Source: Marsupella aquatica (taxonomy: Eukaryota > Plantae > Marchantiophyta). Taken from it: 64,000 nucleotides of DNA. Positions 14,419 to 56,600 of this stretch are shown in pieces. A program made the position numbers and the translations under genes. Positions within the stretch are counted from its first letter, which is position 1; each line of letters begins with the position of its first letter. The DNA lies in contig OZ316892.1 in NCBI GenBank assembly GCA_973895155.1, positions 7,423,251-7,487,250 on the forward strand, given 5' to 3'. The notes beneath the pieces are model-generated. The model ran no database searches, was not told the DNA's origin, and saw nothing but the letters and a program-made list of their open reading frames with translations.

Positions 14419-14477
14419 AGGGTATAGCTGGCCCATTATATGACACTGGCTCAATACCTGTGCGTTGCACAATAGAA

Positions 14478-17503: not shown

Positions 17504-17867
17504 TGTTGGGATATGATCTAGACCAAATGAGACAGCGTCAACACATGTGAACAACATCCATAGACTCCGACACTGAAAGTACGTAGTTCACCCCGTTTGG
17601 GCTACGTCCATGGTCGTGAGAGAAATCCAATAATACACACCGATCACATCCGCCATAGCCAATGTGCTAGAGCTCCTCCTCTCACTCTCTTACTCTGTCT
17701 CTTAAAGAGTGAACCTTCAAATGTGAGCACAAGTTTGTGTTCCCCTTGAGTATACCCCCTCCCATGGTCTATGGGAACCTGGAACTCAAACTAGTGCTAT
17801 CCTAGTATAGTGAAGTCTAGCTAGTACTATAGAAGTATATAGGTTATACTAGAGGCATAACCTAACA
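17504..17867 (-). repeat. 3' LTR of Copia element B (364 bp)
   Basis: TGTT...AACA termini, with the PPT immediately internal at about 17870-17878. Confidence 0.8.
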
Positions 17868-20800: not shown

Positions 20801-22860
20801 GACTGGCTGTTGAAAAACTTACACGATGCTGCTTACCAAGGACATAGTGCTGACAAAACCCCAACTTGCACAATTTTGCACTTGGCAAGAGATTCTGTTT
20901 GCACAACACATTCAGCCCTTTCTCACTCATGTGACCCAACCGTGCATGCCACAATCGTGTCTGATCCACCTCTGATGAAATTGCATTGGCACTACCAAGA
21001 ATTGTGGTGCCTATCAGGATATATAGATTACCCTGTTTCCTACCTTCCATCACCGCTAGAGGACCATGTGTGACCCTCAAAACTCCATTGGTTGTATTCC
21101 ATTGATAACCAGATGTGTCCAATGCTCCCAAAGAGATCAAATTCCGCTTCAAATCTGGAATGTGACAAACATTTGTCAACGTACGCACAACTCCATCAAA
21201 CATTTGAATGCGCATTGTACCTATATCAATGACTTGACAGAGTTGATCATTCCCCATCAAGATATTTCCTGATTTTGGCTCATAGGTGCAGAAGACCTCC
21301 TTGTCATGGCACATATGAAAGAAACATGTAGAATCTAAAATCCAGTCCGATTCCCCACCCTGGGAACCGGTACATAAGGCAAAACTAGCATCATCATTAG
21401 AAGTAACAAAACTCGCCTGACTTTGAATCCTACCACCACTCCTGCAATTCCTCTTAATGTGGCCCTTCTGACCACATTTCCAGCACTCAGCACCCTTCGA
21501 GTCACGTGACTTCGATCTAGCCTTGGTTTTACTAAAGGAGCCTGTAAAACGCTCTCGTGACATGCCCCTGATAACTGCTAGTGCTGATCCAGATGAAGAA
21601 GCTGTGTATCTTTTTTCGCATTTTGTTTGACAGCAGAGTGTTCATTGTCTCATCATAGGTCAACGTTTTCTTGCCATACAAGATTGTCTGGACCAGGTTC
21701 TCATATGAGCGTGGCAAGGAAGTAAGCAAATGAAGGGTCTTCTTCTCATCCTCCACCTTCTCATTGAGACTCGCCAACTCTGCAATGATTAAATTAAAAC
21801 CATCAATATGTTCGTGCATAGTTTCACCTTCAGCCATCTTGAAGTTCATTAACTTCAAGCTCGTGTATAGTCAATTTGTCAATGACTTCTTCTCATACAT
21901 CAGCTTTGGTCGATCCCACAGCTTTGTAATTGTGTCCTCCTTCATAACCTGAAGTAAAACTTCAGGTGCCAAGTGGAGCCTAATCAAACTTAGAGCACGA
22001 TTGCCAATGTCTTTCCACTCCTCATCGGTCATGGAGGATGGCTTGGTGCTTAATGCTAAACCCAAGCCATGGGAAACAAGAACGTCCTTCATTTGTACTT
22101 TCCATAACGTGAAGTTATTGCGCTCGATGAATTTCTCCACTTCATACTTTGCACTGGTCACCTTTCGGGATGCCATGACAATGTCCCCTACTCTTACATG
22201 CAATGTATTCAATGTAAGCTACCAAGGTACTTGTAAGGCTGCCAAACCGTATCGGACCCTCCAAGCAGCCTCACCCAAAAAATCACCAAAAAATGAAAGG
22301 GATCTAAATCAATAACTGACTTCACCTTCCTGTAGCCTGGAAGATAACCTTTTCAGAACACCAAACAACTTTGCAACCGGACACTCGAGCCGAGAGTTAT
22401 TAACTGCTGATGGCAAGGGGGTCAAAATGTCATTTCAGACCCCCTCAAGGAATTTTTTAATAAAAAATTCCACGCACCTTCGTTTCCTAAACCGATTTTT
22501 CAGACCCTTCCCTAACTCCCCCGGGAGCACACCTGCAAAAAATCTCGGAAAACAGAACCCGTTTGCCTTGCCGAATTGCTAATTTACCATTGAATTTTAA
22601 CATTCTAGAAATTGAGAATAAAAATACAGGAGGCGTTTGGCCCTGCGTAGGGGGCGAAATGCCCTGTGGCACTTGCCACAAATAGGACAACACCTGTTTG
22701 CGTCACGCCTCACCACCCCAAGCGCCCTGCCGCTCCCCCTTCCGCCCTGTCACCCTTCTCGTACTCGGCCAAACGCCCTTCCCGCGCCTTGCCACGCGGC
22801 CAAAGTCAAACCCGCCTTGACTGCCCGTATCTCGGCCGTCCGATGTACGATCGATCTATA
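17504..22860 (-). mobile_element. Ty1/Copia element B: gag-protease-integrase-RT-RNase H with frameshifts; 3' LTR 17504-17867; 5' LTR disrupted
   Basis: Motifs in Copia order: gag 'KYEVEKF..RNNFTLWK', zinc knuckle 'CWKCGQKGHIKRNC', protease 'WILDS', 'LWHARLGHMS', rve 'LRSDNGDEY...QNGVSER', RT 'YKARLVAKGF/YVDDML', RNase H 'KHIDIKYHF'. The PPT AAGGGGGAG lies next to a TG...CA LTR. Confidence 0.93.
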
Positions 22861-22958
22861 ATTTATATGGTTGGAACAAGCGCAACGAGATCTTTCCAAC
22901 AAGCCTATGGGCAACCCAAGATCATGACTATCAACAATCGACCTAAATTTATATCATC

Positions 22959-25324
22959 TATTAAGGATTGCTCTTAGTCTTGTGACTCAAAGGTTACGGC
23001 ACTTAGGCTAACCACAGTTAGAGTCTTAGCTGAGGTTAGGTTAGTCGTGTGTGACCTTGTATATACCAGGGCTAGTGTAAGCCATTGGTGTGGTGTGCTT
23101 ACTCATTTGTAAAGGAGCAACTTGAGGAAGAGGGAGAAAATATGTGTTCATCTACTCTTGAAGTAAAACTTGAGTGTTCGTGTGGACGTAGCCTTGGAGA
23201 AGAGGTGAACCACGTAAAGATTGTATTGACTACGTGTGCATGGAATGACTCATGGTTGTATGGTCATTGCGAATGACGTCTTAGTTCAACAATTGGTATC
23301 AGAGCAAGCGTGGGAGGTGACATTGAGGTGATCAAAATTTTTGTGACGTGTTGGTAACGGTTTTTCTAGCGGTTAGAGTCGGTGGATTTCATGGAGTTCT
23401 GTCGCATGGAACTTGAAGGTGTTGGGCTTAACAGATAGATCGAGGCAAGGGCTTTCCGATGGTGCAAAGAAATCTCTGAACGGAGTTTGTGGTGTAGAGA
23501 AATTCATGTTTCCGTCGTTCTGGATTTTTTGTGATTCGTGTTCGACGGTTTTCTTCGACAGTTCTTTTGGGGGGGACCTGAGATTGTTTTTTGTACGGTG
23601 TGAGCTTGCGGTGCGTGAGACATTGCATACTATAGCTCAAATCGTAGATCAGGGAAAGCTGGTCATTTCGGTATTTGGTTTGTTGCTGAGGGTGAACCGA
23701 GTGCGGCACAACAAGCGAAAGAGACGTTTCTAAATTTTTTCATGGCTATGAAGACATAGTCTTGGCTGAAGCAGATTTCTCGATGTCACACTCGGCTCGG
23801 GGGAGAAACGAAAAGTGCAACGGCTCAACAGAGAGATCGTGGTGCGGTGGTCGTTTTGAGTCCGGGATTGGCACTTGACGCGGAGTGAAGGAGTCAAAAT
23901 GAGAAGTTTTTACTTTGCTGGAGTTGCGGATGGCGCCGGCGAAATTTAGAAACATTTCTCGTCGGTGACGTGCACTTTTCTTGTGTGAAACGGCGACATT
24001 TTTTAGTAAGTAACATGACAAATTTTTTTTAGGCAATATTGTGCGTTTGAAAGGGGTTTTAATCCCTTATGTGTATACATGTGCACCCCCTAGGCATACG
24101 ATAACCCCTGGGCGCGCATATAGCGTCGTATTTTTGCGCGTATATTGTGCCCCCTTCCCCCTCCTCCCCCCCTCCTTAAAGCCACATAGGGCCTTGTGCC
24201 TTGGACATCCCCCACCCTCCCCCCTTCGCTAGCCCTCCTCCCATCTCAGCATAGGGCCTTGTGCCCTGGACATCTCACCCCCCCTTCCCCCCTCATTCAA
24301 GCCACATAGGGCCTTGTGCCCTATTTATTAACTCCCTCCCCTCCCCCTTTTCTGCACGATTCCCCTCCACAATAGGACCTTGTGTAACAATTAAAGAGGG
24401 GGAGCTAGGCCAGGAGGGCACGCTGCCCTATGAGCCATTAAGGCAGAGCACCCCCCTCCCTCCCACCCCCATACGTATACGCACAGTACCCCCTCAATGT
24501 ACCCGTGTACAACTGGCGCTTAATACACTATATTTTTTGAAAAGGGATTCAACCCCCCCTTTAGGGCCATTTTCTTTTTTCTCCTCTTTCTCCCATTGAC
24601 TAGGCGGCATCCAGGGCCCAATGACCCAACGATTTAATCGCTTCGACAGGGGGAACGGCCCCCTGTGAGTCCTGCCGCAGTCCAAGGAATATTCCAAAAA
24701 AATAGAGAGCTATTTTTTGACCTTTAGTCAAAGATTCCAAGGTCCGAACGGTAACTTTTTGGATCTTTTTTGGCGAGGACGTAGCCACTGAAGCTAGCAA
24801 CGCGGTGCACCACTCAATTTGCATTTCCGACGACGGGTGGTACTTGGAATTTTTCTTATTCCCCGAGGTGGCCAAAACAGGGGAGAATTTTTGAGTTTTA
24901 CCCACCCCGACCGAAATGTGAAAAAGTTTTTCGTCAGAACTCGGTTTTAATTTTGGATTTCAGCGTTGGCTTGCTAGGTTGGTGGGCTAAGTGGCGGTGA
25001 CAAGTTTCAAGTTTTTTTGAAAGTTACAAAAAATGACATTTTTTTGTGATTTGGATTTGCGTCAACAAGAAGGAAGGTAAAAAACAACAAAAGCATATAG
25101 GGAGCAGCACAGCAATAACACTTGGAGAACGTTGGGAGGGCAATAATGGCATCCAAGTTTGGAGGTGTCAAGTTTGAGGTAGAAAAGTATGATGAGCACA
25201 CGGATTATTTGCTATGGGAGAAGCAGGTTAAGGGAATTCTTCATGCTATGGGCCTAGATTATCTCCTTTTGACTCGGGAGGAGTCTAGTAGTGAGGAGGA
25301 CATCCCGTTGAGGAAATGGAGGCT
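22959..25324 (+). mobile_element. Ty1/Copia element C, 5' part: LTR 22959-23291, PBS, long leader, truncated gag
   Basis: The LTR ends ...TTCAACA and is followed by PBS TGGTATCAGAGC (23294-23305, complementary to initiator tRNA-Met). Gag begins MASKFGGVKFEVEKYDEHTDYLLWEKQVK. The LTR start resembles the 3' LTR start of element A. Confidence 0.88.
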
Positions 25325-25401
25325 GGAACTCAAACTAATGCTATCCTAGTATAATGAAATCTAGCTAGTACTATGGAAGTATATAGGTTATATTAGAGGC
25401 A
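25325..25401 (-). repeat. Fragment of the Copia B LTR (probable remnant of its 5' LTR)
   Basis: 'ggaactcaaactaatgctatcctagtataatgaaatctagctagtactatggaagtatataggttatattagaggca' matches 17781-17857 with few mismatches. Confidence 0.8.
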
Positions 25402-28429: not shown

Positions 28430-29190
28430 TATATGATTAATCATGCAATTTAATTTAAATTATGAATGATTAAATTATGAATGATTAAATCATGCAATAT
28501 AAAAATTAATGTCTAGAATTTACCATAGTAAAAAAATAAATTCTAGAATTTATTGTGGTAAAAAATTTAACTCTAGTAAGTTTAAATAATTTCTAGTATC
28601 TTCTAGGATACTCTAGTAAATGAACCAGCGTGGTCTGACTTCAACTATAAATAAGAGGGAGGCTCACTTTCCCAAGGAAGTCCATTTTCTAGTATTTCAA
28701 ACGTATGAGTGCGATGATAGAAAGTCCATAAAGTGTATATTGTGTACATTAGATTTGCATTGGAGGAATGTTTGAACATCAATTTTAGGACTAAATAAAA
28801 TGGCTATGCCGCCGGTGTCCTGATAATTCAATTATTCATGATGAAATCACTATCACTAGGTATATTATTAATTATATAGATTAGGTTTTCTATTTTGTTA
28901 CGAGATAACTAAATAGTTTGACTATTATTTATGTGCATGCCAGGTAAGCAACTATGCAAGCCACAATATGCATGTTTAGATGCATGTACAAATTATTTTA
29001 TTTGCATGCATTAGTTACTTTATGTGCAAGCCACAAGGTGCATGCACAAGTAATTTAGATGCATGCAAATTAGATGGTAAAGTAGGGTTTAATAGTATAT
29101 TAGTTTTATCTAAACTTTTATTAATACCCGATACCTTTATTATTAGAGTTATCATTTTGATTTTAGTGTAAAACTTGTGGGTGTTGTCTT
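28430..29190 (+). mobile_element. Degenerate LTR-like fragment related to the 32266-33442 repeat
   Basis: Contains a TATAAATA box. 29080-29180 matches 43018-43117 directly and 32330-32430 in inverted orientation. Confidence 0.5.
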
Positions 29191-29399: not shown

Positions 29400-31065
29400 C
29401 GTGCTATTGTTGTGTTGCTCCCTATATATTTTTGTTGCTTTTTCCTTCCTTCTTTCTCGTTGACTCAAATCTAAATCACAAAAGATGTCGTTTTTTGTAA
29501 CTTTCCAAAAAACTTGAAACTTGTAACCACCACATAGCCCACCAGCCTAGCAAGCCAACCCTGAAATCCGAAATTAAAATTGAATTTTGACGAAAAACTT
29601 TTTCAAGTTTCGGTCAGGGTGGATAAAATTCAAAAATTCTCCCCAGTTTTGATCACCCCGGGGAATAACAAAAATTCCAAGTAGCACCCGTTGTCCAAAA
29701 TGCAAATCAATTGGTGCACCACATTGCTAACTTCAGTGGCTATGTCCTCGCCGAAAAAGATCCAAAAAAAAGTTACCATTCAGACCTCGGAAATTTTGAC
29801 TAAAGGCTAAAAAATAGCTCTTTGTTTTTTTCGGAATATTCTTTGGACTGTGCGACAGGTTTCACAGGGGGCCGTTCCCCTTGTCGGAGCGATTAAATTG
29901 CGGTCTAAAGCGGTCTAAAGCGGTCTAAAGCGGTTCTTAAAGCGGTCTAAAGGGCCATTTATAAAAAAAACAGGAGTATGAGGGAGGGAGTATACAAGGC
30001 CTATATAGGGCATATAGAAGGCTGACATATAGAGGTATACCTAGGGGCTCCTCCTTCAATGTAGTTTGGGACTCGTGCCCTGGCTAGAGGACTCCTCCTT
30101 TAACTCTCCTCTTAATGATGCATAGGGCTGCGTGCCCTCTTCCTTGCTTGTACTATGGGGATAATAAAAAAAAATCTACTCCCAAGAGAAGGGAGTCGCT
30201 CCCTCTCCTTGGCAAGGGGCACGATGCCCTATGCAATGGGCACAATGCTCTATGGGGAGGGGTATACACAAGTGCCCTAAAATCTCCTTAAAAAAAACTT
30301 TGACCCAAAGAAAAAGGGTTCGTATAGGGGGGAAGGAGGGCATGAGTACAAGGCAATATACAGGGCAGGGATAAGTACCAAGAACCCACTTAAAAGCAAA
30401 AATTTGACCCCCCAAAAACATTTTCTCTTTTCTAGACACCTTGCCACTTGATCCAAAAAGGTGTCACCGATAGGAAATATTATTTCCGGATTTTGCCTCT
30501 TTCGCATCAGCAGGTTCAGCAGCGCAAAATCTCCGATGTGTCTCCCCCGCTGCACGTCATGTGCCAATCCCAAACTCAGAACGATCACCTCGTCGTGATC
30601 TCTCCGTTAAGCCATAGCACTTCGCGATTCTTCCCCCGAGTCGAGCGTGACGTCGAGAAACCCATTTTAGTCAAGGGCTATGTCTCCATAGCCATGGAAA
30701 AACCAGAAATGACTTCGTCATTCATTGCGTTGCACTCGGTTTACCCTCGACAACAAACTAGATACGAAAATGACCAGCTTTGCCCGATCTACGATTTGAG
30801 CTATAGTATGCAACGTCTCACGTATCGCAAAGTTCAATCTCAGGTCTCTCCTCTGTCGAAGAAACCGTCATAACAAATCTTTTTTCACAAAAAATTCTAG
30901 AATGACAAGAACTTTGATTCCTCCACACCACAAAGTCCGATCAGTGATTTCTTTGTACCGTTAGATAGCCCTTGCCCCGATCTATCCGTTGAGCCCAACA
31001 CCTCCAAGTTCCATGTGACAGAACTCCGTGAAATCCACCAACTCTAACCGCTGGAAAAACCGTTG
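29400..31065 (-). mobile_element. Copia 5' leader, inverted copy of about 23355-25120 (probable 5' portion of element A)
   Basis: Collinear reverse-complement similarity at both ends, e.g. 29461-29880 vs 24640-25070 and 30500-31065 vs 23355-23950. Confidence 0.8.
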
Positions 31066-32265: not shown

Positions 32266-33442
32266 TGTCCGGATGACCGTGTTTTCTGGTAAGAGCATGT
32301 TGGCTCTTACGAAGTTAACTTTGCATGCCCATAAGTTCTACACTAAAACCAAAATGATAATTCTAGTAACAAGGGTAGTGGGTATTAAGAAAGGTTCAGG
32401 TGAAATTAAAATACTGTTAAACCCTACTTCATCATACTTGCGGACCAACATATCACGGAAATTAGTTTTCTTACGACATATGATCCTAATATCTTCAAGA
32501 GAAAATGAAACAGGAATATCATCTGGACTCCTATTCAAATCCATGACTTCAATAAAGGACAAAGATAATGCATTCTCACTCCTCACGGTATGACACTACT
32601 GGGTATATTATCGGCTCGTTAGAAACCATAACAGCAGTTGCAAACTGAGCTCCAAAATGATAGGTTAAATGTTGTCTCATAGATGGTTTGTCTAAAAGAT
32701 GGACTCTAATCAAAAATGGATTACTAAGGGAAAGATCAGGGATAATTCTCTCTCCTGGATTCATGATGCCTCTTCTATTCCTTTGCTATCGGGGCCAAAG
32801 GACGCCCCACCCCTAAATTCCAAAAAAAAACCTTATTCCCTAAGGTCTCATCTATAAGTCTATCGCTCATTCCTTTGCTATTCGGGCCAAAGGACGCCCC
32901 ACTACTATGTTTAAGGCACAAAGAGCTTCACAACCTTGAATGAAAAACACTACGGAATAAGGGGAGAGTGCCTCCTCACCACTTTATTTATAGTGCACAC
33001 CAAGAGGGCATGGATCCAGCCCAAGCACTTGGATGAAGGCCAAGTGTCAAACATCTAATACCTAAGAGTGTGCTAGTACTGTTCATAGTTGGTGAAACTA
33101 CTTTTAGTAGGTGGAACTACCATGCGTTGGTGGAACTACTATGCGTTGGTGGAACTACTATGCGTTGGTAAAACTACTGTAGTTGATAGAACTACTATGT
33201 GCTGATGGACCTACTGTGCGTTGGTAGAACTATTGTGCGTTGGTAGAACTATTGTGCGTTGGTGAATATTATTGTAGTTGGTGAAACTACTCATATGCAT
33301 TGGTGGAACTACTATAGTCCGTTAATATAGCTAAATAAATTTAATAAAGTCTAAATTTAATAATCTAACTACTAAATTACTTATATAATCTATAGCATAT
33401 TAAAATAAACAATTTTTTATAACTTAAGAGAAAATCACGACA
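32266..33442 (-). mobile_element. Solo-LTR-like repeat (about 1.18 kb) with an internal 19-bp minisatellite at about 33085-33315
   Basis: TGTC...GACA termini, a TATAAATA box on the minus strand and 'gttggtggaactactatgc' repeats. A second partial copy lies in opposite orientation at 33458-33792 plus 42965-43179. I see no matching TSD. Confidence 0.6.
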
Positions 33443-33792
33443 ATGTCTCTTTAAAAACTTAAGGGTGGGGCATCCTTTGGCCCGGATAGCAAAAGAACAA
33501 GGGAGTCATTATGAACCCAAGAAGGAGAGATATCCTTAATCTTTCCCTTCGTAACCCATTTTTGGTTAGAGTCCATCTTTGAGACAAGCCATCTATGAGG
33601 CAACATTTAACCTATCACTTTGGAACTCAATTTGCAGCTGCTGTTATGAGTTCTAATGAGCCAATAGTATACCCGGTAGTGTCTTATCGAGAGTGAGAGT
33701 GCATTATCTTTGTCCTCTATTAAAAGTCATGGATCTAAATAGGAGTTTAGATGACATTCCTATTTCATTTTCTCTTGGAGATGTAAGGATCA

Positions 33793-34080
33793 TGTCACCT
33801 CATGTTGCATTTGAGTTGCAACTTTGTTGGTTGCACATGTGTTGTGAGTTTGAGAGGGTGACCTGGCATAGCAGGTCACCTGGTAGGGGTGACCTCTTCA
33901 TCCAGGTTACCATGTCTTTGTGCCATGGGGTATACCTTGGAGAATGATGGATTAGCTCCTCATTCTTCCAAGTTGAGCCTCCCGGCACTAATAGAGCTCC
34001 TGTGAGTCCCACATGGCTAGCGAGTAAGTTTGGCTCGACTTAGTGATATCTTGCAGCGGGGTCCCGTTTTGCAAGAGATT
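33793..34080 (+). repeat. Terminal repeat A1 of the Gypsy-MTase element
   Basis: Direct repeat of 42480-42852 (A2), lacking an internal segment of about 83 bp bounded by GAGT microhomology. Confidence 0.9.
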
Positions 34081-36420
34081 ACTTGGAAGAATATGAAGGA
34101 GGAGAGCAGATGCTTTCAGTTTTTCTGAACTGTGCGGACCAGCGGAGGTGTTCGGTGGAGCTCGGTGATTCATCCATTCGTTCGTTGTTCGTTGGTGCCA
34201 ATCGTTGGTGGGCATTTGCTGATCGTTGGTTGATGTTGCTGGTTGGCAACACGTATCTGGACGTGAAAGTGCTGTCAAAAATTAGTGAGAGTATTCTGAT
34301 TTCAACTCAATTTCCTAAAATCTGGTTACATTTTCATCGCAAATCGTTGATGCGAAGAAGCTATGCTCATTGTATGCACCAATTGAATGGTTGTGCGAAA
34401 AGCTCTATTCGTTGCTGGTTAGAGAGGAAGGCTTGCTGCAGATTTTTGTATGCACAAAGGATGTGCGAAAGCCATGTCCAAATTTTGATAGAAACTCTGT
34501 TGGATGGATAACCACTAGAAATTTTATTGTGATTTCGGATGGAGCATACCGATGCGATTGCATTGGTGAAGTTTGAGTGAAAAATAGCTTGAGAGGTGGA
34601 CATTATGTGCTTCAAACATTTGCTAGAATTTTGTTTGTTGTCGATGGTTTTTTCGACGGTATTTTGTCACGGAATTTGTGACAAGATTTCAATGCAAATT
34701 GTGGTGCAAATGGTTACTTTGTGAAGTTGTATTGTGCACATATTTTGTGCCTACCTTAGGGGTTCATAAAAAACTAAAAAGAATATATGTTTAGAGCCTA
34801 AGCTAGCTTGGAGAAGGGAGGAATTCCAAGGCCTGACTTAGTTGGTGGCATTTGGGAAATAAAATCCACTTTAGAGGGGTTCAAGATATTTTGACTCTTA
34901 TGTTTAGTGGCTCAAAACCTGCACACTACCTTCCATCTTTTATCCCTACTTGGTTGCTTCTACTTTTTGTCCCCTTTGACACTTTATTTGTTATCCTCCT
35001 ACTAGTGTAACCATATGCTGCACTTTTATCTCATCCGTGTCCACTTTATTTTGTGCTCTCTTTTTAAGTGATTACCCTTTCTTCTTTGTTATTTGGGTAT
35101 TTTGGTGGGCCTTTTAGTGCTACCCTTTTTGTTACCCAAGGGAATCATATTTAAAAAGAAATAGGGTAGGGACCCAAGGTAAAAGCGGCTCCCCACGGAA
35201 GCCAAGGCTGGAGTTAAAGGGGGCCAGTTGGGCTCCCAAGGAGCCAGGCGGCCCCTTCTCGAACATTGAGGAGGGGGGAGGGCCCAAGGTGGTCTGTCAC
35301 CTTTTTTTGTTAAAGGATGGAAGGACCAGGTGTGCAACGCCTCCCCAAGGAGGTCCAGGTACAAGGAGGGGAGGGAGGATTTGCAGCTCCTTCCAGGTGG
35401 CCCAAGGCATTTAATAAGGAGGGCCCGCAGCCCTATGAATTGGTTTTAAAGAGGGGTGAGGAGCGAAGGAGGCAGGGGGAGGGGCATTCCAAGCTCCCTC
35501 CTCTTGGGAGCATTCAAGGAGGAGGGCTCCTAGCCCTATGGAGTGTCATTAAGGAGAGGCCCGAGGTGGCAGGAGGTCCCCCACAAGGACAGGAGCGAGC
35601 CCATTGGCCCCAGATGCCAGGAGATCTCCCAACACTTAGGAGCGAATTGGGAGAGGGTGCGGCAGGCGAGGGGTGGCAGGGCACTAATGCAAGGCAGGGC
35701 CCGAGGCCGGCAGGTGTCCACGCCTCATTAGCTATATTTTTTTGGCCGTATCCTACCGTGTCCCAGCCCATTTCTTCGTATTTAACAATTGTTTCCCGTA
35801 TTTGTGCCGTATTTTTGTAATTTGGGTTGTTTCCGCACAATTGCCACTGCGGGAAGCTTCCTCTATACTTGGTGCAGCAGAAAATCCGAGACCTCATTTC
35901 TGCACTTTGCCCGACACCATTGTGACCCCCCCGTAGTTGCACCACCATAGCTCGGTCATCTGAAGTCCATTTTGCTCATCGATTATAGGGTTGGATGCGG
36001 TGGCTCGTTGGCTATCAGGATCAGTTATCTACACACAATTTTGACACATTTCATTTTTTGGCCATTTTGCGGTGGTCTTGTTGTAGTCGTTGGCAGTAGT
36101 TGCTGCCAAGTGATTGTTGTGCCACAGGAGTGCTATAGTTAGTTGCATAGCCACACTGGAGATAGGAGTGACTCGCAGTGGTGCCCGATTTCGACCGTTG
36201 GAGGTAGATCGATCGTCTGCGCGGCACTGGCACCGACCCTGCCGTGGAGGAGGCGACGCAATTACTATCCTGATTGTCACTGTATTCACGCATTAGTCCC
36301 TACAATTGGGACATGGAGCATTCCATGGATAGTCGGATTTAGAGGTTTTTGGGAGATGTTGGCACCATGGAGTTGCCACATTTCATTATGGAGTTTGAGC
36401 GGTGGTGTGATCAATAAAAG

Positions 36421-37287
36421 TTGCGCAGCACGGCATTCTCCCCTTTCATGGCATGGCAGGCATTGTTCCAGCACTTGGAGGGGCCACCCATGCATGACTA
36501 TGAGGAGTTCCAGACGATGTATGCTGAGCACATTGAGTCTTGGAGACGCAAGTGGTCTCCAGATTACGTCTCACTCACAAGTGAAGATGTGTCCCCGAAG
36601 GAGGAAGAGGGTGTTAGCAGCTCTAGCACATCGTTGCCAATCCCCAGGTTCAACTCGATGGTGAAGTTCTTCAAGGTGTTGAAAAAGAATTACCAGGGTG
36701 TCCGCGTGGATAAGTTGTTGAGCCTCCAGACATTCAGCAGGATGAAGGGTGAGAGTTTGCACAAGGCGTACACGCGCATGAGGCGGTTGATCAGTATCAC
36801 GGAGGGCATTATTGATGCTCAGGCTATCAAGATTTGGTACCAAGCCCTGGATAAGGATTTGAGGAATCGGGTTTGGTTTTTGGCGTTGGCCACTGATGAG
36901 AAATTGACACTGGAGAAAGTTTTCCTACTTTCTAATACCATTGACATGAACCGGTCAGAGGAGAAGGTTGTCACCCTTGGATTTGGCAAGGAGTCCCCTG
37001 GAGGCAGTGCTGCTAGTCCATCTGGTGGGCAGCAGCCACATCGATTGGGGAATGTGCCAGGGAGGGCACAGCCCAATGCTCCCGGTGGTGCTGTTGCTGG
37101 TGGCAGGAGAGCAACAGCACCCCAACGTCCCTTTCAGCCCTCTTATGCCACTCAGGTGGAGTGCTGGAGCTGTAAGGGACCTCATAACCAGTGTGATTGC
37201 CCTGATCGGAAGGGTCCACCACGTGCAAAGCCGGGCGGAGCTGCCCCTAGACAACCTGATCTTAAGCTGTCTAGGGCTTGGGATTGA
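36421..37287 (+). CDS. gag: Gag (capsid plus CCHC zinc knuckle) of the Gypsy-MTase element
   Basis: Gag motif 'LQTFSRMKGESLHKAYTRMRRL' and knuckle 'CWSCKGPHNQCDC'. Confidence 0.8.
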   Translation: MRSTAFSPFMAWQALFQHLEGPPMHDYEEFQTMYAEHIESWRRKWSPDYVSLTSEDVSPKEEEGVSSSSTSLPIPRFNSMVKFFKVLKKNYQGVRVDKLLSLQTFSRMKGESLHKAYTRMRRLISITEGIIDAQAIKIWYQALDKDLRNRVWFLALATDEKLTLEKVFLLSNTIDMNRSEEKVVTLGFGKESPGGSAASPSGGQQPHRLGNVPGRAQPNAPGGAVAGGRRATAPQRPFQPSYATQVECWSCKGPHNQCDCPDRKGPPRAKPGGAAPRQPDLKLSRAWD

Positions 37288-37560
37288 AAAAGGCTGAGGT
37301 AGAGCCTTGCCCATCTCAGATTCATACATCTCTTGGTGTCCAAGAGAAGGCACATCACATGATGCAAGATAACCATACTGTGAGGTTTCCCCACCGCACT
37401 GGAGATGACTCTGCCTTGAAGGTGAAAGCCGTTGTCACACCTGTAGAGTCTTATGATGTTTTGGTAGGGAAGCCATACTCTACCCCATGGGCTTTGTGTT
37501 GGATTACTGGCAGGAGACTGTTCACTATCGACCAGGATGGCAGTCTGGTGATGGTAGGAA
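37278..37560 (+). pseudogene. Aspartic protease remnant (C-terminal half)
   Basis: 'VKAVVTPVESYDVLVG' matches the retropepsin C-terminal (Y)D(V/I)LLG motif. The catalytic D-S/T-G segment is not visible and appears deleted. Confidence 0.55.
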
Positions 37561-37929
37561 GTGTGAGTTACCAGTCCACTACTTTCTGCGTCGGACTGAG
37601 CGGTCACCAAAGTAGATGATTAGTTTGTCAGCTTGTGCTGGAGCTATCACCTGGCCAGGTGATCTCTTGGAGGGTAATGCCCATGCTGCAGACATCCCCG
37701 TAGCAGAGCAGTTGCACGACTCCTCAGGTAACTGCAGCATTTCCATTGTCCCACAGGTATGGGGTTCCACTCCTGAGTTATAGCAACATGCTGATTCATA
37801 TATACAGGCAGCATGGCGTGCACCATTTGCCCCTTTAGCGGAGCCACCTGTGGTAGATTGCATTCCCAGGTTGATCATTGTGTCCCCGTTGGACACCACT
37901 CCCATTTTGTGGACATACCCTACTGAGGG

Positions 37930-38880
37930 TATTCGCTTGTTGGAATTGTTTGGTGGCATGAGCACTGGTTTAGCTGCTATCTTACATGCTGGCATTAGAG
38001 TGCAACAGTATCTCTATGTGGAGCGCGATGACACAGCCCGACATGTCTCATTGCGTTATATTGCTCAATTACATCAGCAGTTCCCTGATTTATTGCTTCT
38101 ATCAGCTATCAGAGATTATCAGCACGTTTTGCCAGTAAACATCTCACTTTTGGGGGCATCGGATTTAGTACGCATTGGTGCGATTCACCTTGTCATTGCT
38201 GGTTGGCCATGCCAGGGCCATTCCTCTACTGGGACAGGATCTGGTCTCAAAGACCATTGTTCTCACATGTTTTGGGAGATGCTGTGTGTCATGAGGTTTT
38301 TGCAGGTGCAGCAGCATGTCTCTCCTGCCTACATTCTAGAGAATGTTCCCTTGTTGGGTGATACTCGGTCACAGATGGTGGCTAGTATGCACCAAGTGAG
38401 GTCCTGGTTAGGACCTGCTGTTTTTTAGATGCTGCTAGTGTCGGATCGACAGCACATCATCCACGATTATGGTGGACCAACTTGATGCCACCTGAGATTT
38501 TGCGGAGGGCATATCAGCATATTATGCGGCCTGTTGGGCTCACTATGGACCGCATTTTGGATGTTGGACGACATGCACAATTGGTGCATCACGATGATCG
38601 CTCCCCATTGGCAGTGGTGAACCGGGTTGGTCAACCCCGTGCAGCACTACCCATTTTGGTGAGTTTTCCCTCATCGTATGCTTACCGTAATGGTGGACCA
38701 GGGTTAATTTGGGATTCCCACCACAAAGAGCTGACGGAACCTACTACTGATGAGCATGAGTGTGCTATGGGATTTCAGACTCGTCCCACAGTAGTACCCT
38801 TAGTGATTGAAGCAGCACGCCGTCACATTTAGGGTCAGGCTATGGATCTTAATTGTTTGACTTGGATTGTGAGCTTAGCC
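37930..38880 (+). pseudogene. DNMT3-type DNA (cytosine-5)-methyltransferase domain within pol (frameshift at about 38425, stop at about 38830)
   Basis: Motif I 'IRLLELFGGMSTG', II 'YLYVE', IV 'LVIAGWPCQG', VI 'YILENV', VIII 'LDAASVGSTAHHPRLWWTNL', IX 'EHECAMGF', X 'ARRHI*GQAMD'. They are in canonical, non-permuted order and collinear with DNMT3A. Confidence 0.93.
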
Positions 38881-39090
38881 TTGGCAGAGCAGTGCCAGTT
38901 ACAATCATCTATGACACCTTCACATGGATGCTCTTTCTCTCTTGGGTCCTTAGCGTTCAGAGCAGGGGGCGACAGTGCCACAGATTGTCATCCCTGGACT
39001 TCATGGGGAGTCAGTGGAGAGGCCAATGGGCTTTCTTTTTTGCAGCAACATGGTATTGTTGCTCGTGAGGTTGCAGCATAGCAACCACAG

Positions 39091-40560
39091 TTGGCACTCT
39101 CTGCACCTTCTGCCGAGGTTACCATTGACAGTTGGGAGCCAACTACTGGCCCCAAGATCACTGGAGGTGAGAGACGATGTGTACGACAGTTTCTACGGAG
39201 TTATGGAAGTTGTTTTGCTTTCAGCATGCAGGATTTGGGCATGTTAAAGGGACCAGACATCCGGATAGATTTGGCAGTTGATGCTCCCATCTTTCGAAGA
39301 CCATATCGGTATTCAGATATGGAGAGGGCATTGATTCAGGCAAGGTGCCAGGATTTGTTGGCAGCAGGACTTGTGGAGAAGTCATTTGGTGAGTATGCTT
39401 CTGCCACTATGATGCCAGCAAAGAAGGATATGCATGGCAATTGGACTGACAGGAGGATGTGTGGAGACTATCATCCAATTTATCGGCAGACTAAGTCTGA
39501 CAGGTATGCCATGCCCACACCGGAGGAAATATTTGATGTCATTGGGCATGCGAGAGTGTTCAGCACATTGGATCTCAGGGCTGGATATCACCAGCTGCTT
39601 ATCAGGATTGGTGATAGGCAGAAGACAACATTCTGGGGGATTGATGCTCATGGGAAGGATGTGTTGTATTAGTGGCTATTCTTACCGTTTGGATTGAAGA
39701 ATGCACCAACTGAGTTTCAAAGGGTCATGGATCGGATTTTGGCAGACCTGGATTTGCCAAATGTTATATCGATGACATTATTGTCTACAGTGACATTGTG
39801 GAGGAGCATGCTATACATTTGCAGCAGGTGTTTGAGCGGCTGAGAGAACATGGATTGAAGCTGCATCCTGGCAAATGTAAGTTCTTCCATGACCAGATTG
39901 CATATTTAGGGCATACCATTTATCCAAGTGGATTGGGTGTGTAGCAGACAAAGGTGGAGGCAATTGCTGGCATCCCTCAACCTACAAATGTGAGTAGAGT
40001 CCGAGCATTTTTGGGGCTTGCAAACTTCTACCGAATGTATGTGAAAGGATTCAGTGCAATTGCAAAACCTTTGATACTTACGAGACTGGACCATGAGTGG
40101 CAGTGGGGTGATGATCAAGATAGAGCTTTCCATCAGTTGAAGGAGAAGCTCACATCAGCGCCCATCTTGAGGAGACCTATCAGGGGGCGTCCATTTAGGT
40201 TGCATACTGATTGGAGCATGTTGGGACTTGGGGCAGTGCTCACTCAGCAAGATGATGAGGAAAGGGAGTTTGTGGTAGCATATGCCAGTCGATCAAATAA
40301 CACTGCAGAATCAAAGTATGGCTCCTATGAGGGAGAATGCTTGGCTGCAGTGTGGGCAGTGGCTCATTTTTTATGTTACTTGTTTGGTAACCCCTTCACT
40401 CTTGTTATGGATCATCAACCACTCAAATGGTTGATGGAGTCAGACAAGCTTACTAGTAAGCTTGCTCGTTGGGCACTCATACTTCAGGAGTATGATTTTG
40501 AGGTCTTGCATAGACCTGGTCACTTACATCAGGATGCTGATGGATTAAGTCGCAATCCCT
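39091..40560 (+). pseudogene. pol: Gypsy reverse transcriptase and RNase H
   Basis: 'PIFRRPYRYS', 'RMCGDY', 'FSTLDLRAGYHQ', 'LPFGLKNAP', 'YIDDIIV', 'LHTDWSMLGLGAVLTQ', 'VVAYASR', 'DHQPLKWL', 'ADGLSR'; several stops and frameshifts. Confidence 0.95.
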
Positions 40561-40899
40561 GCCCGAGCCAGAGGGATTTGATAGGAGCACGTTGGCATGA
40601 TAAGGCAGACGAGGAGATGGTGCCAGGTTGGCATCCTTCTGCTTATTTGTGCTTTGTTGCAAAGTGTGGATGGTCTTGGTGCAGTGACATCATTGGAGAG
40701 GCCCAATGCATACTTTGTGGATCCAGAGATTTCTAGTGAGGAGTCTGTTGGCCATGATATTCATGATGATGTAGATGTTGTGATATATCTGCGCACGGGC
40801 AGCATGCCAGGCATGGTAACTGCCAAGGAGAGAGATCGGATCCTACAATGAGCTAAGAGGTTTAGATGGGAAGGATCTCACTTGTTGAGAGTTTGGGAT

Positions 40900-42050
40900 G
40901 ATGGCAGGGTGCGATTGGTACCTCCTTTATCCCAGCGTGCATGATTGGTGCAACATGCTCATGAAGAGCTTGGACATTTCGGAATGAAGCGGACCTACAG
41001 CTTATCCCAGATCCAGTATTGGTGGCACTGAATGCATGCTGAGGTGCAGCAATTTATGACGCGGTGTACTGTGTGTGACAGAGTGAGAGCATCATTTAAT
41101 GCTCCTACCCCGCAGCTGCATCCCTTGCCAATTATGGGCTTGGGATATCGTTGGAGTTTAGATTGTGCTGGACCCTTACCATTGACTAGACGTCACAACC
41201 GTTATGCCTTAGTGATGGTGGAGCACTTTTCTAAATGGATTGAGTTGGTTGCATTGCCAGATAAAGGTAGTGAAGGAGTTGCCTATGCTTTTCTGGACCG
41301 TGTATTGAGCCATTTTAGTGCTCCTGCTGAGGTTTTGACTGACCAGGGGACTAAATTTCGTGGAGATTTTCAGACCTTGTGTGATCAAGCATTGATTGAT
41401 CACCGTACGACATCTAGGGATCATCCACAGGCAGATGGATTGGCAGAGAGAGTTGTCCAGACAATAAAGAGAGGATTGCGGAAGTATGGCTTGCAGAAGA
41501 GTCACGTGAATGATTGGAATATCCAGCTACCATGGTTGCGATGGGATATCGATTTAGTAGGCAAACATCTCTTGCATCATTTTCACCATATTTGCTGCTC
41601 TATGGTAGGGAGCCAGTGTTGCCAGCAGCCATTCAAAGGGAGGTTGTTGAGGTATTGCAGTTGGATGACCCTGACATGTGGATGCAAGCTTGTTCTCAAC
41701 GGGCAGACTTGTTTTGGAGAGTGATGCCCATGGCATTTGAGAACTTAGCTATTGCGCAGCATCGGGATACTTTGAGGTATGCCACTATTTGGAGGAGGAT
41801 GTCGCCCTAGCATCAGGCGATTTCATTATGGAGACTATGTGTATCTACAACAGACAGCACCTACTACTTTGGATGTCACTGCCGGACGTACTATTCTACG
41901 AGTGTAGAAGGTTTTGCCATCATGCATTCTGGTTTTAGAAGGTCGTGATGGTATGGTTTGGAAGGATCATGTGCGCAACTGTGCACCTTGTCACCTTCCA
42001 AACATTGATGATAGCATAGATCCTAGTCTAGTAGTGATACCTGCAAGCTT
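40900..42050 (+). pseudogene. DDE integrase (HHCC zinc finger, rve core, C-terminal beta domain)
   Basis: 'HEELGHFG...CTVC', 'WSLDCAGPLP', 'VLTDQGTKF', 'HPQADGLAERVVQTIK', 'SPYLLLYGREP', 'GDYVYL'. Confidence 0.93.
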
Positions 42051-42054
42051 ATGA

Positions 42055-42195
42055 TGTATGTTGTGTGGATCCGCCCGTGGAGCTGCAACCATGTTGATTT
42101 GTGATGGTTGCTCAAGAGATTGGCATTTAGCGTGTTTGATGCCACCTCTTGATTCAGTCCCTGAAGGACGGTGGTTGTGTCCCAATTATAGATAG
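42055..42195 (+). pseudogene. PHD finger at the integrase C-terminus
   Basis: Manual translation CMLCGSARGAATMLICDGCSRDWHLACLMPPLDSVPEGRWLCPNYR* is a C4-H-C3 PHD with the last Cys changed TGT>TAT. It is absent from the ORF track. Confidence 0.9.
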
Positions 42196-42369
42196 AGAGT
42201 GACTTTAGTTAGCACAAAACTCATTGGGCAGTATAGATTGCAGGCAGGTGATTAACGATGGGGCTCCTTTGCATCCGGCCTCTTGATCTGTGCACCCAAA
42301 AGGTGTATACTTCCTTCTAGTTTTTGGGCTAGCTATAGTTAGCGGGACCTAACCACCAACTAGGGGGGC

Positions 42370-42960
42370 GATTATGGATTTCAGCGTACATGTGTTGTGT
42401 GTCGTGTGATTATTTGTTTTCTTGTTTACATGGTGTGCCGCAATGTGAGTTGTGTATGAATGTGTGTCCGCACGACAGCTATCACCCCATGTTGCATTTG
42501 AGTTGCAACTTTGTTGGTTGCACATGTGTTGTGAGTTTGGGAGGGTGACCTGGCATAGCAGATCACCTGGTAGGGGTGACCTCTTCACCCAGGTTACCAT
42601 GCCTTTGTGCCATGGGGGTATACCTTGGAGAATAAGAGATTAGCTCCTCATTCTTCCAAGTTGAGCCTCCCAGCACTAGTAGAGCTCCTGTGAGTGTGGC
42701 TATGGTGAGAGAGAGAGTATATGCCGGTTGGCATGAAGAGCGACATTGACAGGGTTTTGCTATGTGTATAGACTTGGAGTCCCGCATGGCTAGCGGATGA
42801 GTTTGCCTTGACTTACTGATACCTTGTAGTGGGGTCCCATTTCGCAAGAGATTGTTATGGATTTTGGTATACATGTGTTGTGTGTCGTGTGATTATTTGT
42901 TTTCTTATTTACATGGTGTGTCGCGATGTGAGTTGTGTATGGATGTGTGTCCGCACGACA
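42370..42960 (+). repeat. 3' terminal repeat block B1 (42370-42477), A2 (42480-42852), B2 (42853-42960), preceded by a PPT
   Basis: PPT-like AGGGGGG at 42362-42368. B1 and B2 are direct repeats of about 108 bp, both ending GTGTCCGCACGACA. Confidence 0.9.
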
Positions 42961-43179
42961 ATCATATGTTGTAAAAAAATTAATTTCCGAGAGGTGTTGG
43001 TCCGCAAATATAACGAAGTAGGGTTTAATAGTATATTAGTTTCACCTGAACCTTTCTTAATACCCACTACCCTTCTTACTAGAGTTATCATTTTGGTTTT
43101 AGTGTAGAATTTATGGGCATGCAAGGTTGACTTCATAAGAGCCAACATACTCTTACCAGAAAACATGATCACCCGGACA

Positions 43180-53662: not shown

Positions 53663-56600
53663 TCATCTTCTGCTGGCATTTCGTCTGGGTCCAGGTGAGC
53701 GCCTGCTTGACTCCAAAGAGGCTCCAGTTTTTGCCCCGTTTCCAGCTACATGTCTCTCGGCTGGTTTAGAGGTTGTTACTGAGGCTACTACTTTCATTCT
53801 GCGTTGAACATCTTCAGCGTACCTGCGCCACCAAGACTCACGATCTCGCCTTGGCATTTTTGTGTAACGCGGATCGGGCTTAAGGAGGATTTTAGCCTCC
53901 GACCAAGACGTCAGAATCAGCTTCCCCTCTTCGCCATTCTTTGTCGCTGCCTCCACTGTTATCACATCTGCAAGTAACCCTCTGTACTCTCGAACGCAAC
54001 GCTGCAAAACAATAATATGGACCACCTTACAAACGTCAAGATCGCACTGGGAATCCGCAATGTTGATCCAACTAACTCTTTAGGTCCCTTGTCTTTCCAA
54101 CAGTGAGAAAAACATAGGAATAATGTCTTCAGATTGACTCAGAATTGAGATTAAATCAGCTATTTTGCAGTAGAGAGAATCAAGAGATATACCTCAAAAA
54201 GCTCATTTATATGTTCACGGAAAAATCTTTCACGATCGGCAGGTTCAAGCTCAGGATTTGTGGCACGACCAACTGGGTCCTTTTCCAACTTTGGACGAGC
54301 TTCAGTCCAGGAAGCCTGCAAGAACAACATTCAATTAACAAAACTCAAGTCCTAGAAAGCTCTTCCAGACATGCGTAGCTTCAACAAAGGCCATGGGCTA
54401 ATAACATACCTCTGGATCTTTGATTTTTTCAGTCAAGAGTGCTTGATAGGCAGTCACAGCATCCTTGCGCCTGGCTTTCATTCTAACTCTCTCCATTTCT
54501 AGCTCCTCTCTCTCTTTCCGTTTACGCATTTCCCGTTCCCTCTCTTTCAACTTTTCCTGCGGATACACCAGAAAATTACTCACATCTCGAGTATAAACCT
54601 CTTTAAGGCATCAAGGCTTGTTTGGGCTACCATTCAACACGTAAGACATATGTGACGTACCACTCACATCCAGACGTGCGTAGAATATGAACGATTTATC
54701 TTCATATAGAAAGTAACAACAGTCCTTGAGGAAAATACAGGAGTTGAACGTCTACCTCTTCATCTCTCTTGGCCTTGGCTGCCCTCTCTGCTTCTTGTTC
54801 TGCCGATACCAATTCAGCTATGTATGCATTGAACAACCCTTCTCGTTCCTCGCGTTTTACTATGATATACCTAGGATCACTCCGGAAGCCTTCCCTGACC
54901 TGACATACACACGAACAACAATCTAGCATAATCAGCAATAATAGCACCGAAGAATATATTCCAAGAGGACATTTGTTTCCAGATAATATGACATGTAGAT
55001 AGCTGACACCAACTCAGCGTAGCTTTAGTGCGTACCTTCGACCATCGGGTGGCGATGTTGATATCAGTTCTCTCTGCTAGCATTGCTCTGAAACCTCCGA
55101 CAGCTGCTTCATGCTCCGATCTTACCCTCTCCTCCTCTGCTTTCCTCAGTGGCAGAACTCTGCATTCAATAAGAGGAGAAATGAGGGTATGTAACTGACC
55201 CACTCGGAAGAGTGATTTAATGTGCGATTCGCTCTTGAACAGTGAAGTGTAACTCCGAAACTTCGGGATACAACCAGGATTTGACTTGTAGAAGAGTCAG
55301 CACTCAATCAATCAAATAAATACAGAACTGGCTGAGAATTATGAAGGGACATCTTGTGTGGAGATCTGCAATGGCTATTGTCCAGTACTTGACAAACAGT
55401 CCACAGGATACTTTGCCAAACATGGAAGGCAAAAGTTTACCTTTACAGTCAAACCCAACCAAACACTACGAAAATCACAAAGAAAATCTACAAAAGAAAT
55501 GCCAGCATTGTTTCCACAATGATCTAAGGCAAGCACTAAGGTAATCTATGACGAAGTGTTGATACTCCATACGTCGGAGTCATCTGGAGGCAATAGGCTC
55601 CAGAGAAAAAAATAGCAGGAGGGGTTCACCGAGAAACTGCACTCATCGGTAAGGTCATGGCATGGTGTCAGTGGTACGCGATTGGTGAACTGCTAGCAGG
55701 AGGGCAGTAAAAAAAGAAACTATACCTGTAGCCAATTATGCCTCGGCGTACCGCAAAAGTGAGACAGGGTTCATCACCTTGGTATCCGAAAAATGTCTTA
55801 TCAACCACATGGACATTAAGCAACACCGATGTCAGCCATCCACACAACTATGGCCGCTCATTAATCAATTTCAATGATATTGCTTCACTGTTGCTTCCCG
55901 TGTCAGCTAACTCACTTATCAGCTCTCTTCACAGAAAAAACCCCAACATACGACTTACCGGACAGCCATGAAATATGGCATATTCAATCCGGGCTTAGCT
56001 TTAACCCTACTCCAAGCTCTCAGGCTTGATTTCTCTTTAGGGGAACTTAAAGACGTTTCAAAAGGTAAAAACCTTCCCCACAGGAGGCATAATTCAATTC
56101 CTTTATCTGCCCACAAAAGAGCTCTCATGTCCTGCTTGTCAAGTCCAAAGCCCATGCATACCTTTCATTCAAAAGTGCCTCCCGGTCCTTGCGATCCAGA
56201 GCCTCAAATCGAGAATCTTCTCCCCACGTCCTTGCAAAATGCTCGTATGTTGTGTGGAATGAGATATCCTGCAAAGTGTTACAACACTTTAGCAGTTAAT
56301 ATATCGGATGATTTCCAACTAGTTAGTCTAAATGCTAATCGATCGCACCAGCAAATATGGTCTGAAGAGAGTAGTCTGTAAGATTTTGAAGGGATATATG
56401 AAACTGATTCCCCCTAAAGACCAGGGATCTGAATCAGAGTACAGTGCTTTGTCTAGGGGAATGCAACCTACCAGATTTTGGCAGTAAGCAGACAACTGTG
56501 GTTAAACCTGGGAAGCCATCTCTGCATTTGCTGACAGACCAATAGACGGATAAGATGAGGCATGGCTGCACCAATCAGCCCGGCAAATGAGAGACCCTAA

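Follow-up and report, generated by a model that had tools for sequence, protein, structure and literature searches.

A Ty3/Gypsy retrotransposon with a DNMT3-like methyltransferase domain and an A-coding-B-A-B repeat layout in the liverwort Marsupella aquatica

The window analyzed here is a 64,000-nucleotide stretch of the Marsupella aquatica genome (GenBank assembly GCA_973895155.1, contig OZ316892.1, positions 7,423,251 to 7,487,250 of the forward strand). Its minus strand carries the exons of an RRN3 gene (8763-12898), whose frame at 12425-12898 matches Calypogeia fissa at 88% over the matched part, Marchantia at 50%, and the other plants listed at 43 to 56%, a pattern that most likely indicates a leafy liverwort as host. 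The same strand holds WW- and FF-domain exons, likely from a gene for a PRP40/TCERG1-like splicing factor (53666-60091), and a Copia element with gag knuckle, protease, integrase, and reverse transcriptase (RT) (17774-25401), which served as a composition control. A tandem array of about 17 copies of a 35-bp unit occupies 14467-15071. Two pairs of long inverted repeats, one nested in the other (24632-25121 with 29401-29898 and 23356-23738 with 30698-31064), are probably DNA transposons.

On the plus strand, a Ty3/Gypsy element of 9,168 bp with TGTC...GACA ends lies at 33793..42960, as delimited by repeat comparison and by an empty-site joint of 33788 to 42961 in sequencing runs X1 and X2. The target-site duplication ATCA flanks it on the left (33789..33792) and right (42961..42964), and ATCA occurs once at the empty site, which is preserved in the partner arm of the inverted-repeat element that the insertion interrupts. 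The interrupted element (32266-43179) is non-coding, its inverted arms are about 554 bp long, and it likewise has TGTC at its start and GACA at its end; a further partial copy of it is found at 29074-29181, and a target duplication for it was sought and none was found. Many diverged copies spanning the whole methyltransferase element are present in contigs of runs X1 and X2.

The coding part of the window element is ordered gag, protease, DNMT, RT, RNase H, integrase, and PHD finger, all on the plus strand. The gag region (36343..37215), with a zinc-knuckle-like motif at 37162-37200 and one stop at 36415, matches residues 13-319 of the Marchantia protein P0009 at 44% and gave no Pfam match. 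The original prediction, made from the letters alone, had placed a methyltransferase between protease and RT. The position is right, but of the protease itself only the C-terminal half is left in this copy (37278..37594, with a frameshift near 37469): a deletion of about 330 reference residues (P0009 residues about 320-653) runs from the zinc knuckle to mid-protease and includes the catalytic D-S-G, which is kept in 31 of 40 related loci. The DNMT3-like C5-cytosine methyltransferase domain (37904..38895) is broken, with a frameshift near 38425 and an internal stop at 38830. Behind it, an in-frame stop with a TMV-type context, TAG CAA CCA (39079..39087), is conserved in the family and closes the Gag-PR-DNMT open reading frame (ORF). 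RT follows in frame (39127..39938; stop at 39670, frameshift near 39753), then RT thumb/connection and RNase H (39945..40565; Pfam RT_RNaseH, E = 5.5e-34), a DDE integrase with HHCC, core, and C-terminal part, interrupted by stops and frameshifts (40936..42051; Pfam rve, E = 1.2e-11), and a PHD finger closing pol (42058..42186; PF00628, E = 1.1e-10). In the Pfam search it was this PHD finger, and not a chromodomain, that lay downstream of the integrase; the element's frames contained the rve integrase and no match to a tyrosine recombinase. With lesions in DNMT, gag, RT, and integrase, the window copy is dead, as had been claimed.

All of the C5-methyltransferase motifs named by the original prediction are present on the plus strand: IRLLELFGGMSTG (37931-37969), AGWPCQG (38198-38218), ENV (38339-38347), DAASVGSTAHHPRLWWTNL (38428-38484), EHECAMGF (38752-38775), and GQAMD (38833-38847). 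They follow the order I-IV-VI-VIII-IX-X. Because this order is not circularly permuted, identity with a DRM methyltransferase was rejected, in agreement with the earlier reading. The claimed absence of introns is likewise supported, the domain being collinear with a 1278-aa Marchantia protein. Searches with the window DNMT recovered 50 related proteins (E = 5e-72 to 1e-19). Its N-terminal half passed the Pfam cut-off for DNA_methylase (E = 2.7e-6) and matched the DNMT3A structure weakly (E = 0.005), and its C-terminal half matched no PDB chain. The suggested likeness to DNMT3A was clearer in the intact relative at locus L007, which matched DNMT3A at E = 1e-11, compared with 3.6e-5 for a DRM and 1.4e-4 for M.HaeIII. 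For a model of the domain from locus L052 (pLDDT 81), DNMT3A/B/C were the only proteins among the Foldseek matches listed (best E = 2.4e-18, TM 0.70). Though broken, the window copy retains P-C and E-N-V; the conserved arginines of motifs VIII and IX are lost.

Relatives bearing the DNMT occur in Marchantia (with intact ORFs), Calypogeia, Sphagnum, Closterium, Klebsormidium, and chlorophytes, and the DNMT half matches named proteins of Marchantia, Calypogeia, and Sphagnum with identities reaching 63%. A DNMT profile recovered 479 clusters at E up to 1e-30. Among 66 metagenome loci, retroelement domains were found on both sides of the DNMT in 38, on one side in 20, and on neither side in 8, these last being contigs of 1.1 to 3.7 kb. 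Other members therefore do carry the domain, which stands beside retroelement domains in 58 of the 66 loci. Apart from one eukaryotic element in a metagenome-assembled genome (L073), scans of IMG/VR and GTDB returned only distant methylases of phages and bacteria; an Atlas search returned generic DNA_methylase clusters only. The L073 element is of chlorophyte type and was binned in a cyanobacterial genome; it has a single polyprotein frame of 3265 codons and an extra ORF of 713 codons (10033-12171) upstream of its polypurine tract (PPT). In Marchantia, intact Gag-PR-DNMT ORFs are annotated as hypothetical proteins (P0196, P0197, P0203, P0204, and P0009; models Mp_Vg00370, Mp_Vg00540, Mp_5g06330, Mp_5g06860, and Mp_4g09160).

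The position of the domain differs among groups. In bryophytes and some further contigs, Gag-PR-DNMT is followed by a stop and then by RT, RNase H, integrase, and PHD finger (layout 1); Closterium and some other sequences have PR-DNMT-RT in a single ORF (layout 2); and in the chlorophytes Monoraphidium, Haematococcus, and Hariotina the DNMT sits between RNase H and integrase, in the order RT-RH-DNMT-IN-PHD (layout 3). DNMT trees, built from subsets of 77 and 48 rows with partial domains excluded and rooted on three distant phage enzymes, placed each layout on one side of a supported branch. The window DNMT grouped with Marchantia, Calypogeia, and moss-like copies (support 99/100). An RT tree of 29 rows split layouts 1 and 3 as the DNMT tree did (96 and 99 SH-aLRT), with a root that is unsure because there is a single, very distant outgroup. 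Between families, dN/dS of the DNMT was 0.11 to 0.20 in five pairs, with dS near saturation in most of them; among decayed moss-like copies it was 0.73 to 0.95. The catalytic cysteine is kept in 39 of 41 and 117 of 118 rows (156 of 159 domains in all) and the E-N of motif VI in all 159, so that the catalytic residues are near-invariant, exceeding the surrounding surface. Motif IV frequently reads E-C for P-C, in 53 of the 118 chlorophyte-type rows and in the Closterium proteins too. Judged from these alignments, the DNMT domain is integral to the element family, is under purifying selection, and tracks the RT tree.

The original prediction had proposed a search for intact copies with one continuous frame through protease, methyltransferase, and RT. 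The land-plant copies are organized differently: the ORF that begins with Gag and protease ends with the DNMT, and a conserved stop of the leaky type follows. A shared ORF for DNMT and RT was seen only in the forms of the Closterium-like and chlorophyte type. Among 46 loci, consisting of the window and those with a DNMT end and an RT start in that order, and including many near-copies or one insertion in several samples, 43 had TAG or TAA followed by CARYYN 15 to 22 codons upstream of RT, across five distinct families. The motif was absent from L058, L063, and L067, and the full CARYYA was present in five loci (the window, L007, L052, L053, and L055). In L052, 1369 aa, TAG CAG TTA, and 1047 aa form one frame throughout; five Marchantia ORFs of 1278 to 1281 aa stop 92 residues past motif X with no RT inside. 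Across the host copies in four runs, there were zero contig variants at 39082-39087 and TAG differed in at most 7% of depth, while the bases neighboring 39079-39087 did vary. A reading of the 39079 stop as damage was rejected on account of its conservation across the family.

SIRE1 uses a TMV-type leaky stop for its env-like ORF. In the window family, the stop is placed after protease and DNMT and not between gag and protease. It resembles the TMV-type UAG CAR YYA signal in having CAR-YYA after the stop; CAR YYA is the TMV readthrough consensus, and in the available part of the source two type I signals gave 32% and 11% readthrough in a plant reporter (PMC2754532). In the moss-like family the stop is followed by CAA CCC, which departs from that consensus at one base; an ATG comes next, so that reinitiation is possible there. 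The stop is likely a TMV-type leaky signal, and because it parts DNMT from RT, the DNMT is likely made at the level of Gag, with Pol produced via readthrough.

The ends of the window element depart from the canonical layout of two terminal LTRs: the left end is a repeat A and the right end a repeat B, in the order A1, coding part, B1, A2, B2. Repeat A1 (33793..34080), the predicted promoter, R, and U5 part of an LTR, is without 85 bp that are present in A2 (42480..42853) and differs from it at 23 of 288 aligned bases. Repeat B1 (42372..42477), which ends in GACA, has 8 differences in 106 bases from B2 (42855..42960), the right end of the element. Transitions account for 28 of the 31 changes in the two comparisons. 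Within A1, we located an inferred TATA-like box, TATACC (33931..33936), found at the same place in A in two other families, and a predicted transcript 5' end (33962..33973) that would act as a self-primer, being complementary to a predicted primer-binding site (34081..34092) that begins at the first base past A1. The PPT, AGGGGGG (42362..42368), is 3 bases upstream of B1; it thus lies 105 nt upstream of the internal B-A joint and not directly before the TG of a 3' LTR. These features are all on the plus strand. The B1-A2 joint GACAGCTATC (42474..42483, no strand assigned), a predicted pair of integrase attachment sites, is one transition off the family palindrome GACAGCTGTC. TG...CA ends, a short target duplication, and a DDE integrase are all present in the element.

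Other copies have similar ends. The full A-coding-B-A-B arrangement was found in L025, L038, and L044, and in L017, L052, and L053 repeat B runs into A up to the contig end. Six loci lack A2-B2 and terminate at B1 with unique flank; one of these has a clean duplication. An origin of B-A-B from nested solo LTRs was rejected, the same layout being present in L025, L038, L044, and Chlamydomonas. Both ends are visible in five copies, and each of these is flanked by a 4-bp duplication (ATCA, TCTC, AAGG, CACA, and TACA), the last belonging to a short-form copy. In each of the eight junction-bearing sequences that were checked, a G-run is directly upstream of B1, and B and A meet at GACA-GC-TGTC or a transition variant of this sequence. 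The exact 10-mer occurs four times in the 483 kb of L007-L073, always at the B-A joint, 104 to 236 nt past the PPT, one of the four being in the chlorophyte-type L073; the four variants carry C-T or G-A changes only. In the part of the Chlamydomonas repeat library that was searched, 9 of 11 palindrome occurrences lie about 50 to 70 nt past a G-run, and Gypsy-14a, Gypsy-14b, and Gypsy-22_cRei have TGTC at the start and GACA at the end. The A2-B2 joint varies among copies and may hold one additional base, a filler of 18 bases, or 9 primer-site bases with filler; Tf1 cDNA is known to retain primer-site bases, as described in the available portion of PMC11042837. A mirror form, A-B-A-coding-B, was found at none of 15 loci (13 sites) and is also absent from the window.

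Self-priming complements of 12, 14, and 13 nt, differing in sequence, were found in three families, each directly past A, and the predicted transcript start lies 28 to 31 nt past the TATA box (31 in the window, 28 in two other families). The self-priming fold had a z score of -2.3, with 3 of 200 shuffles equally good. At the chlorophyte-type locus L073, the sequence after the palindrome gave no self-priming complement. In repeat A of L016 and L052, the predicted transcript start is part of a perfect hairpin, and the upstream arm of this hairpin has the sequence of the primer-binding site; L042 has a deletion between the hairpin-arm copy and the primer-binding site, repeats like those in L016 and L052. 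Because the PPT precedes B and the primer site follows A, B-A is likely the working LTR, with predicted integrase sites internal to it. Integrase sites inside the LTR would in turn mean integration by cutting a circle.

We consider it probable that these observations reflect a Gypsy-Dnmt3 element that has a leaky stop, primes itself, integrates from a circle, and methylates its own new cDNA. Transcription would start about 30 nt past the TATA box in A1 and end in A2. Most ribosomes would very probably halt after the DNMT, so that Gag-PR-DNMT outnumbers Pol, and we are just as confident that the RNA 5' end would pair with the site past A1 and prime synthesis as in Tf1. Ordinary LTR reverse transcription would yield B-A-coding-B-A, with free ends that lack attachment sites. 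Host end-joining would then probably make a two-LTR circle, in which integrase would cleave both strands of the 5' LTR palindrome at CA and insert the circle, thereby producing A-coding-B-A-B. The short form, A-coding-B, would arise from a one-LTR circle, from cutting of both palindromes, or from later B-B recombination, three routes that are indistinguishable here and that share in the same degree of confidence. The B1-A2 joint would be precise because the 5' palindrome is what is cut, and the A2-B2 joint imprecise because the cDNA ends are joined. This model does not account for the missing mirror form, which would be expected if integrase could cut either palindrome. Circle integration is usually seen as a dead end for LTR elements. 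The available part of Delelis et al. 2005 (PMC1180852) describes how foamy virus integrase cuts a palindrome of two head-to-head attachment sites in two-LTR circles; there, the palindrome comes from joined linear ends and the product is a normal provirus, whereas in the window family the palindrome would be built into the LTR and the product permuted.

The last step concerns the enzyme. Freed by protease in the particle, the DNMT may methylate the cDNA, likely long-lived and circular, so that it passes as host chromatin; we judge the chances of this to be about even, which still makes methylation of the element's own cDNA the most likely role for the DNMT. The suggestion is based on the DNMT traveling with Gag, on the conservation of its catalytic residues, and on the activity of a related DIRS enzyme on CG. 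In the available part of PMC5890265, the Klebsormidium enzyme gave no methylation in yeast, a result that its authors call inconclusive. A compositional footprint was also sought. CpG observed/expected was 0.37 in the window element, no stronger a depletion than the 0.32 of the Copia element in the same window, and CpG and CHG depletion as a mark of self-methylation did not differ between the two.

Alternatively, the domain could be a DNA-binding or scaffold module, or could act at the level of Gag to damp element activity or host silencing in trans. We regard this as unlikely on the whole, and it draws on several observations: the position of the DNMT varies (after protease and before a stop, after protease in one ORF, or between RNase H and integrase), motif IV reads E-C for P-C in some relatives, and in one Chlamydomonas family the domain looks dead. 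In that family, Gypsy-14b_cRei has, by eye, a degenerate DNMT-like stretch in the gap between RNase H and integrase that is without the catalytic Cys or ENV; since its ends are the same, catalysis may be dispensable. Six guessed codon patterns for motif IV were found nowhere in the Chlamydomonas library, which is a weak test. The near-invariance of the catalytic residues in 159 domains, above that of the surrounding surface, argues against a non-catalytic role.

The repeat layout raises a different alternative, that the element replicates like DIRS or Ngaro, with an RNA from A1 to B2, split repeats that are inherited, a circle formed via strand transfers, and an integrase in place of the tyrosine recombinase. 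As de Mendoza et al. noted for KnitGypsy-Dnmt3 (PMC5890265, available part), split-direct-repeat DIRS elements have this same layout, and one A2-B2 joint is common to L044 and L038. The likeness to SymbioDIRS-Dnmt3 extends to a DNMT3-like domain, which in SymbioDIRS was active on CG in yeast. On the other hand, the PPT directly before B1 and the primer site directly past A1 define B-A as an ordinary LTR, the A2-B2 joint is variable within one family, and six copies end at B1 without A2-B2, one of which has a clean duplication. We therefore find DIRS-like replication quite unlikely. Identity with DIRS itself was rejected: SymbioDIRS and DIRS have a tyrosine recombinase, and the window element has a DDE integrase, TG...CA ends, and 4-bp duplications.

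In a third alternative, the enzyme and the palindrome would work as a restriction-modification pair, the DNMT methylating the 3' LTR palindrome and those in resident copies, which would leave the 5' palindrome as the only one open to integrase. This would explain why the mirror form is missing from all 15 loci and why DNMT and palindrome co-occur from chlorophytes to liverworts. The palindrome holds symmetric CAG/CTG cytosines, and its four variants are transitions at its cytosines. Yet host CHG methylation would give the same decay, Gypsy-14_cRei retains the layout with a domain that is degenerate by eye, and, in the available part of PMC5890265, retrotransposon DNMT3-type enzymes methylated CG with no sequence preference in yeast. 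Such a pairing seems improbable to us, and so does the whole reading of a green-lineage LTR clade with an internal integrase palindrome, circle-only integration, and a DNMT that guards the second palindrome; the circle route by itself we hold to be fairly likely. One-off capture of a host DNMT3 gene by a single copy or family is extremely improbable, and chance capture was rejected on the distribution of the domain, which occupies the same place in dozens of copies from liverworts, mosses, and algae, has no insertion boundaries and no introns, is under purifying selection, and in trees of element-borne domains gives a topology congruent with that of RT.

The closest described system is KnitGypsy-Dnmt3 of Klebsormidium nitens, a DNMT3-bearing Gypsy element with split repeats (de Mendoza et al. 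2018, PMC5890265). As described in the available text, it shares with the window element the Gypsy domains, an intronless, non-rearranged Dnmt3-like domain, and a DIRS-like repeat layout. The K. nitens protein GAQ93235.1 (P0459) has zinc knuckle, protease, and a partial DNMT in the same order and is 31 to 39% identical to the window DNMT; it matched at E = 1.6e-71 and fell among element-borne domains in trees whose outgroup was three phage enzymes only. The original prediction thus holds in its main point, a Gypsy element with an integral DNMT3-like domain, kin of the Klebsormidium element, in a land plant; the split repeats, the internal palindrome, and the self-priming site had not been part of it. 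De Mendoza et al. place the DNMT of KnitGypsy-Dnmt3 in the RT ORF (PMC5890265, available part), whereas a conserved leaky-type stop splits the two in the window family; because of this split, the window element is a variant of the KnitGypsy-Dnmt3 lineage and not the same family. The available part of PMC5890265 describes no PPT, primer site, palindrome, target duplication, or mechanism and does not mention a PHD finger. KnitGypsy-Dnmt3 is taken there as an acquisition in the K. nitens lineage, whereas the relatives found here span chlorophytes to bryophytes.

Other known elements share parts of the architecture. Gypsy-14a, Gypsy-14b, and Gypsy-22_cRei (Craig et al. 2023, PMC9940879, available part) have PPT, B, GACAGCTGTC, A, and B as in the window family, and Gypsy-14 has an integrase with a PHD finger, as in the window element. 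They are library entries only, with no mention of split direct repeats in the available part of the PMC9940879 supplement; Craig's 2021 thesis may describe them. The chromoviruses Tf1/Sushi and Tcn1 likewise lack a tRNA site and have a stretch after the 5' repeat that is complementary to the predicted transcript start, but they have ordinary TG...CA LTRs and a chromodomain where the window element has a PHD finger, a DNMT, and permuted ends (Neumann et al. 2019, PMC6317226, available part). The same portion of that paper mentions no methyltransferase in Phygy or Selgy. In what is available of PMC8557442 and PMC6673714, PHD fingers in retrotransposons are the only feature in common.

The DNMT itself is the 2018 finding extended to land plants; the permuted LTR with internal sites is the more surprising part. 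Later papers cite the DNMT3-Gypsy as "streptophyte" with no further data in their available parts (PMC12344493; bioRxiv 10.64898/2026.05.21.726589), and a 2019 opinion piece has methylase transposons in green algae and charophytes and absent from land plants "such as tracheophytes" (PMC6338049). Two liverwort papers mention no DNMT-bearing element in their available parts (PMC5784723, PMC9985172). Searches of freely readable papers and preprints found no description of the bryophyte occurrence, the leaky stop, the self-priming site, the palindrome, or the implied route.

The end structure points to an LTR element for which a circle is the normal integration route. LTR finders that require an LTR at each terminus would likely overlook such ends, a possible reason why the family is absent from plant classifications. 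The permuted LTR with its predicted internal attachment sites is conserved from Chlamydomonas to liverworts and is testable in Marchantia. The role of retrotransposon DNMTs was left open by the 2018 paper, as far as its available text goes (PMC5890265). In the model plant Marchantia polymorpha, for which genetics and methylomes exist, several near-identical Gag-PR-DNMT ORFs are intact. That role is therefore directly testable there, and these unnoticed Marchantia enzymes could bear on the methylome of the plant.
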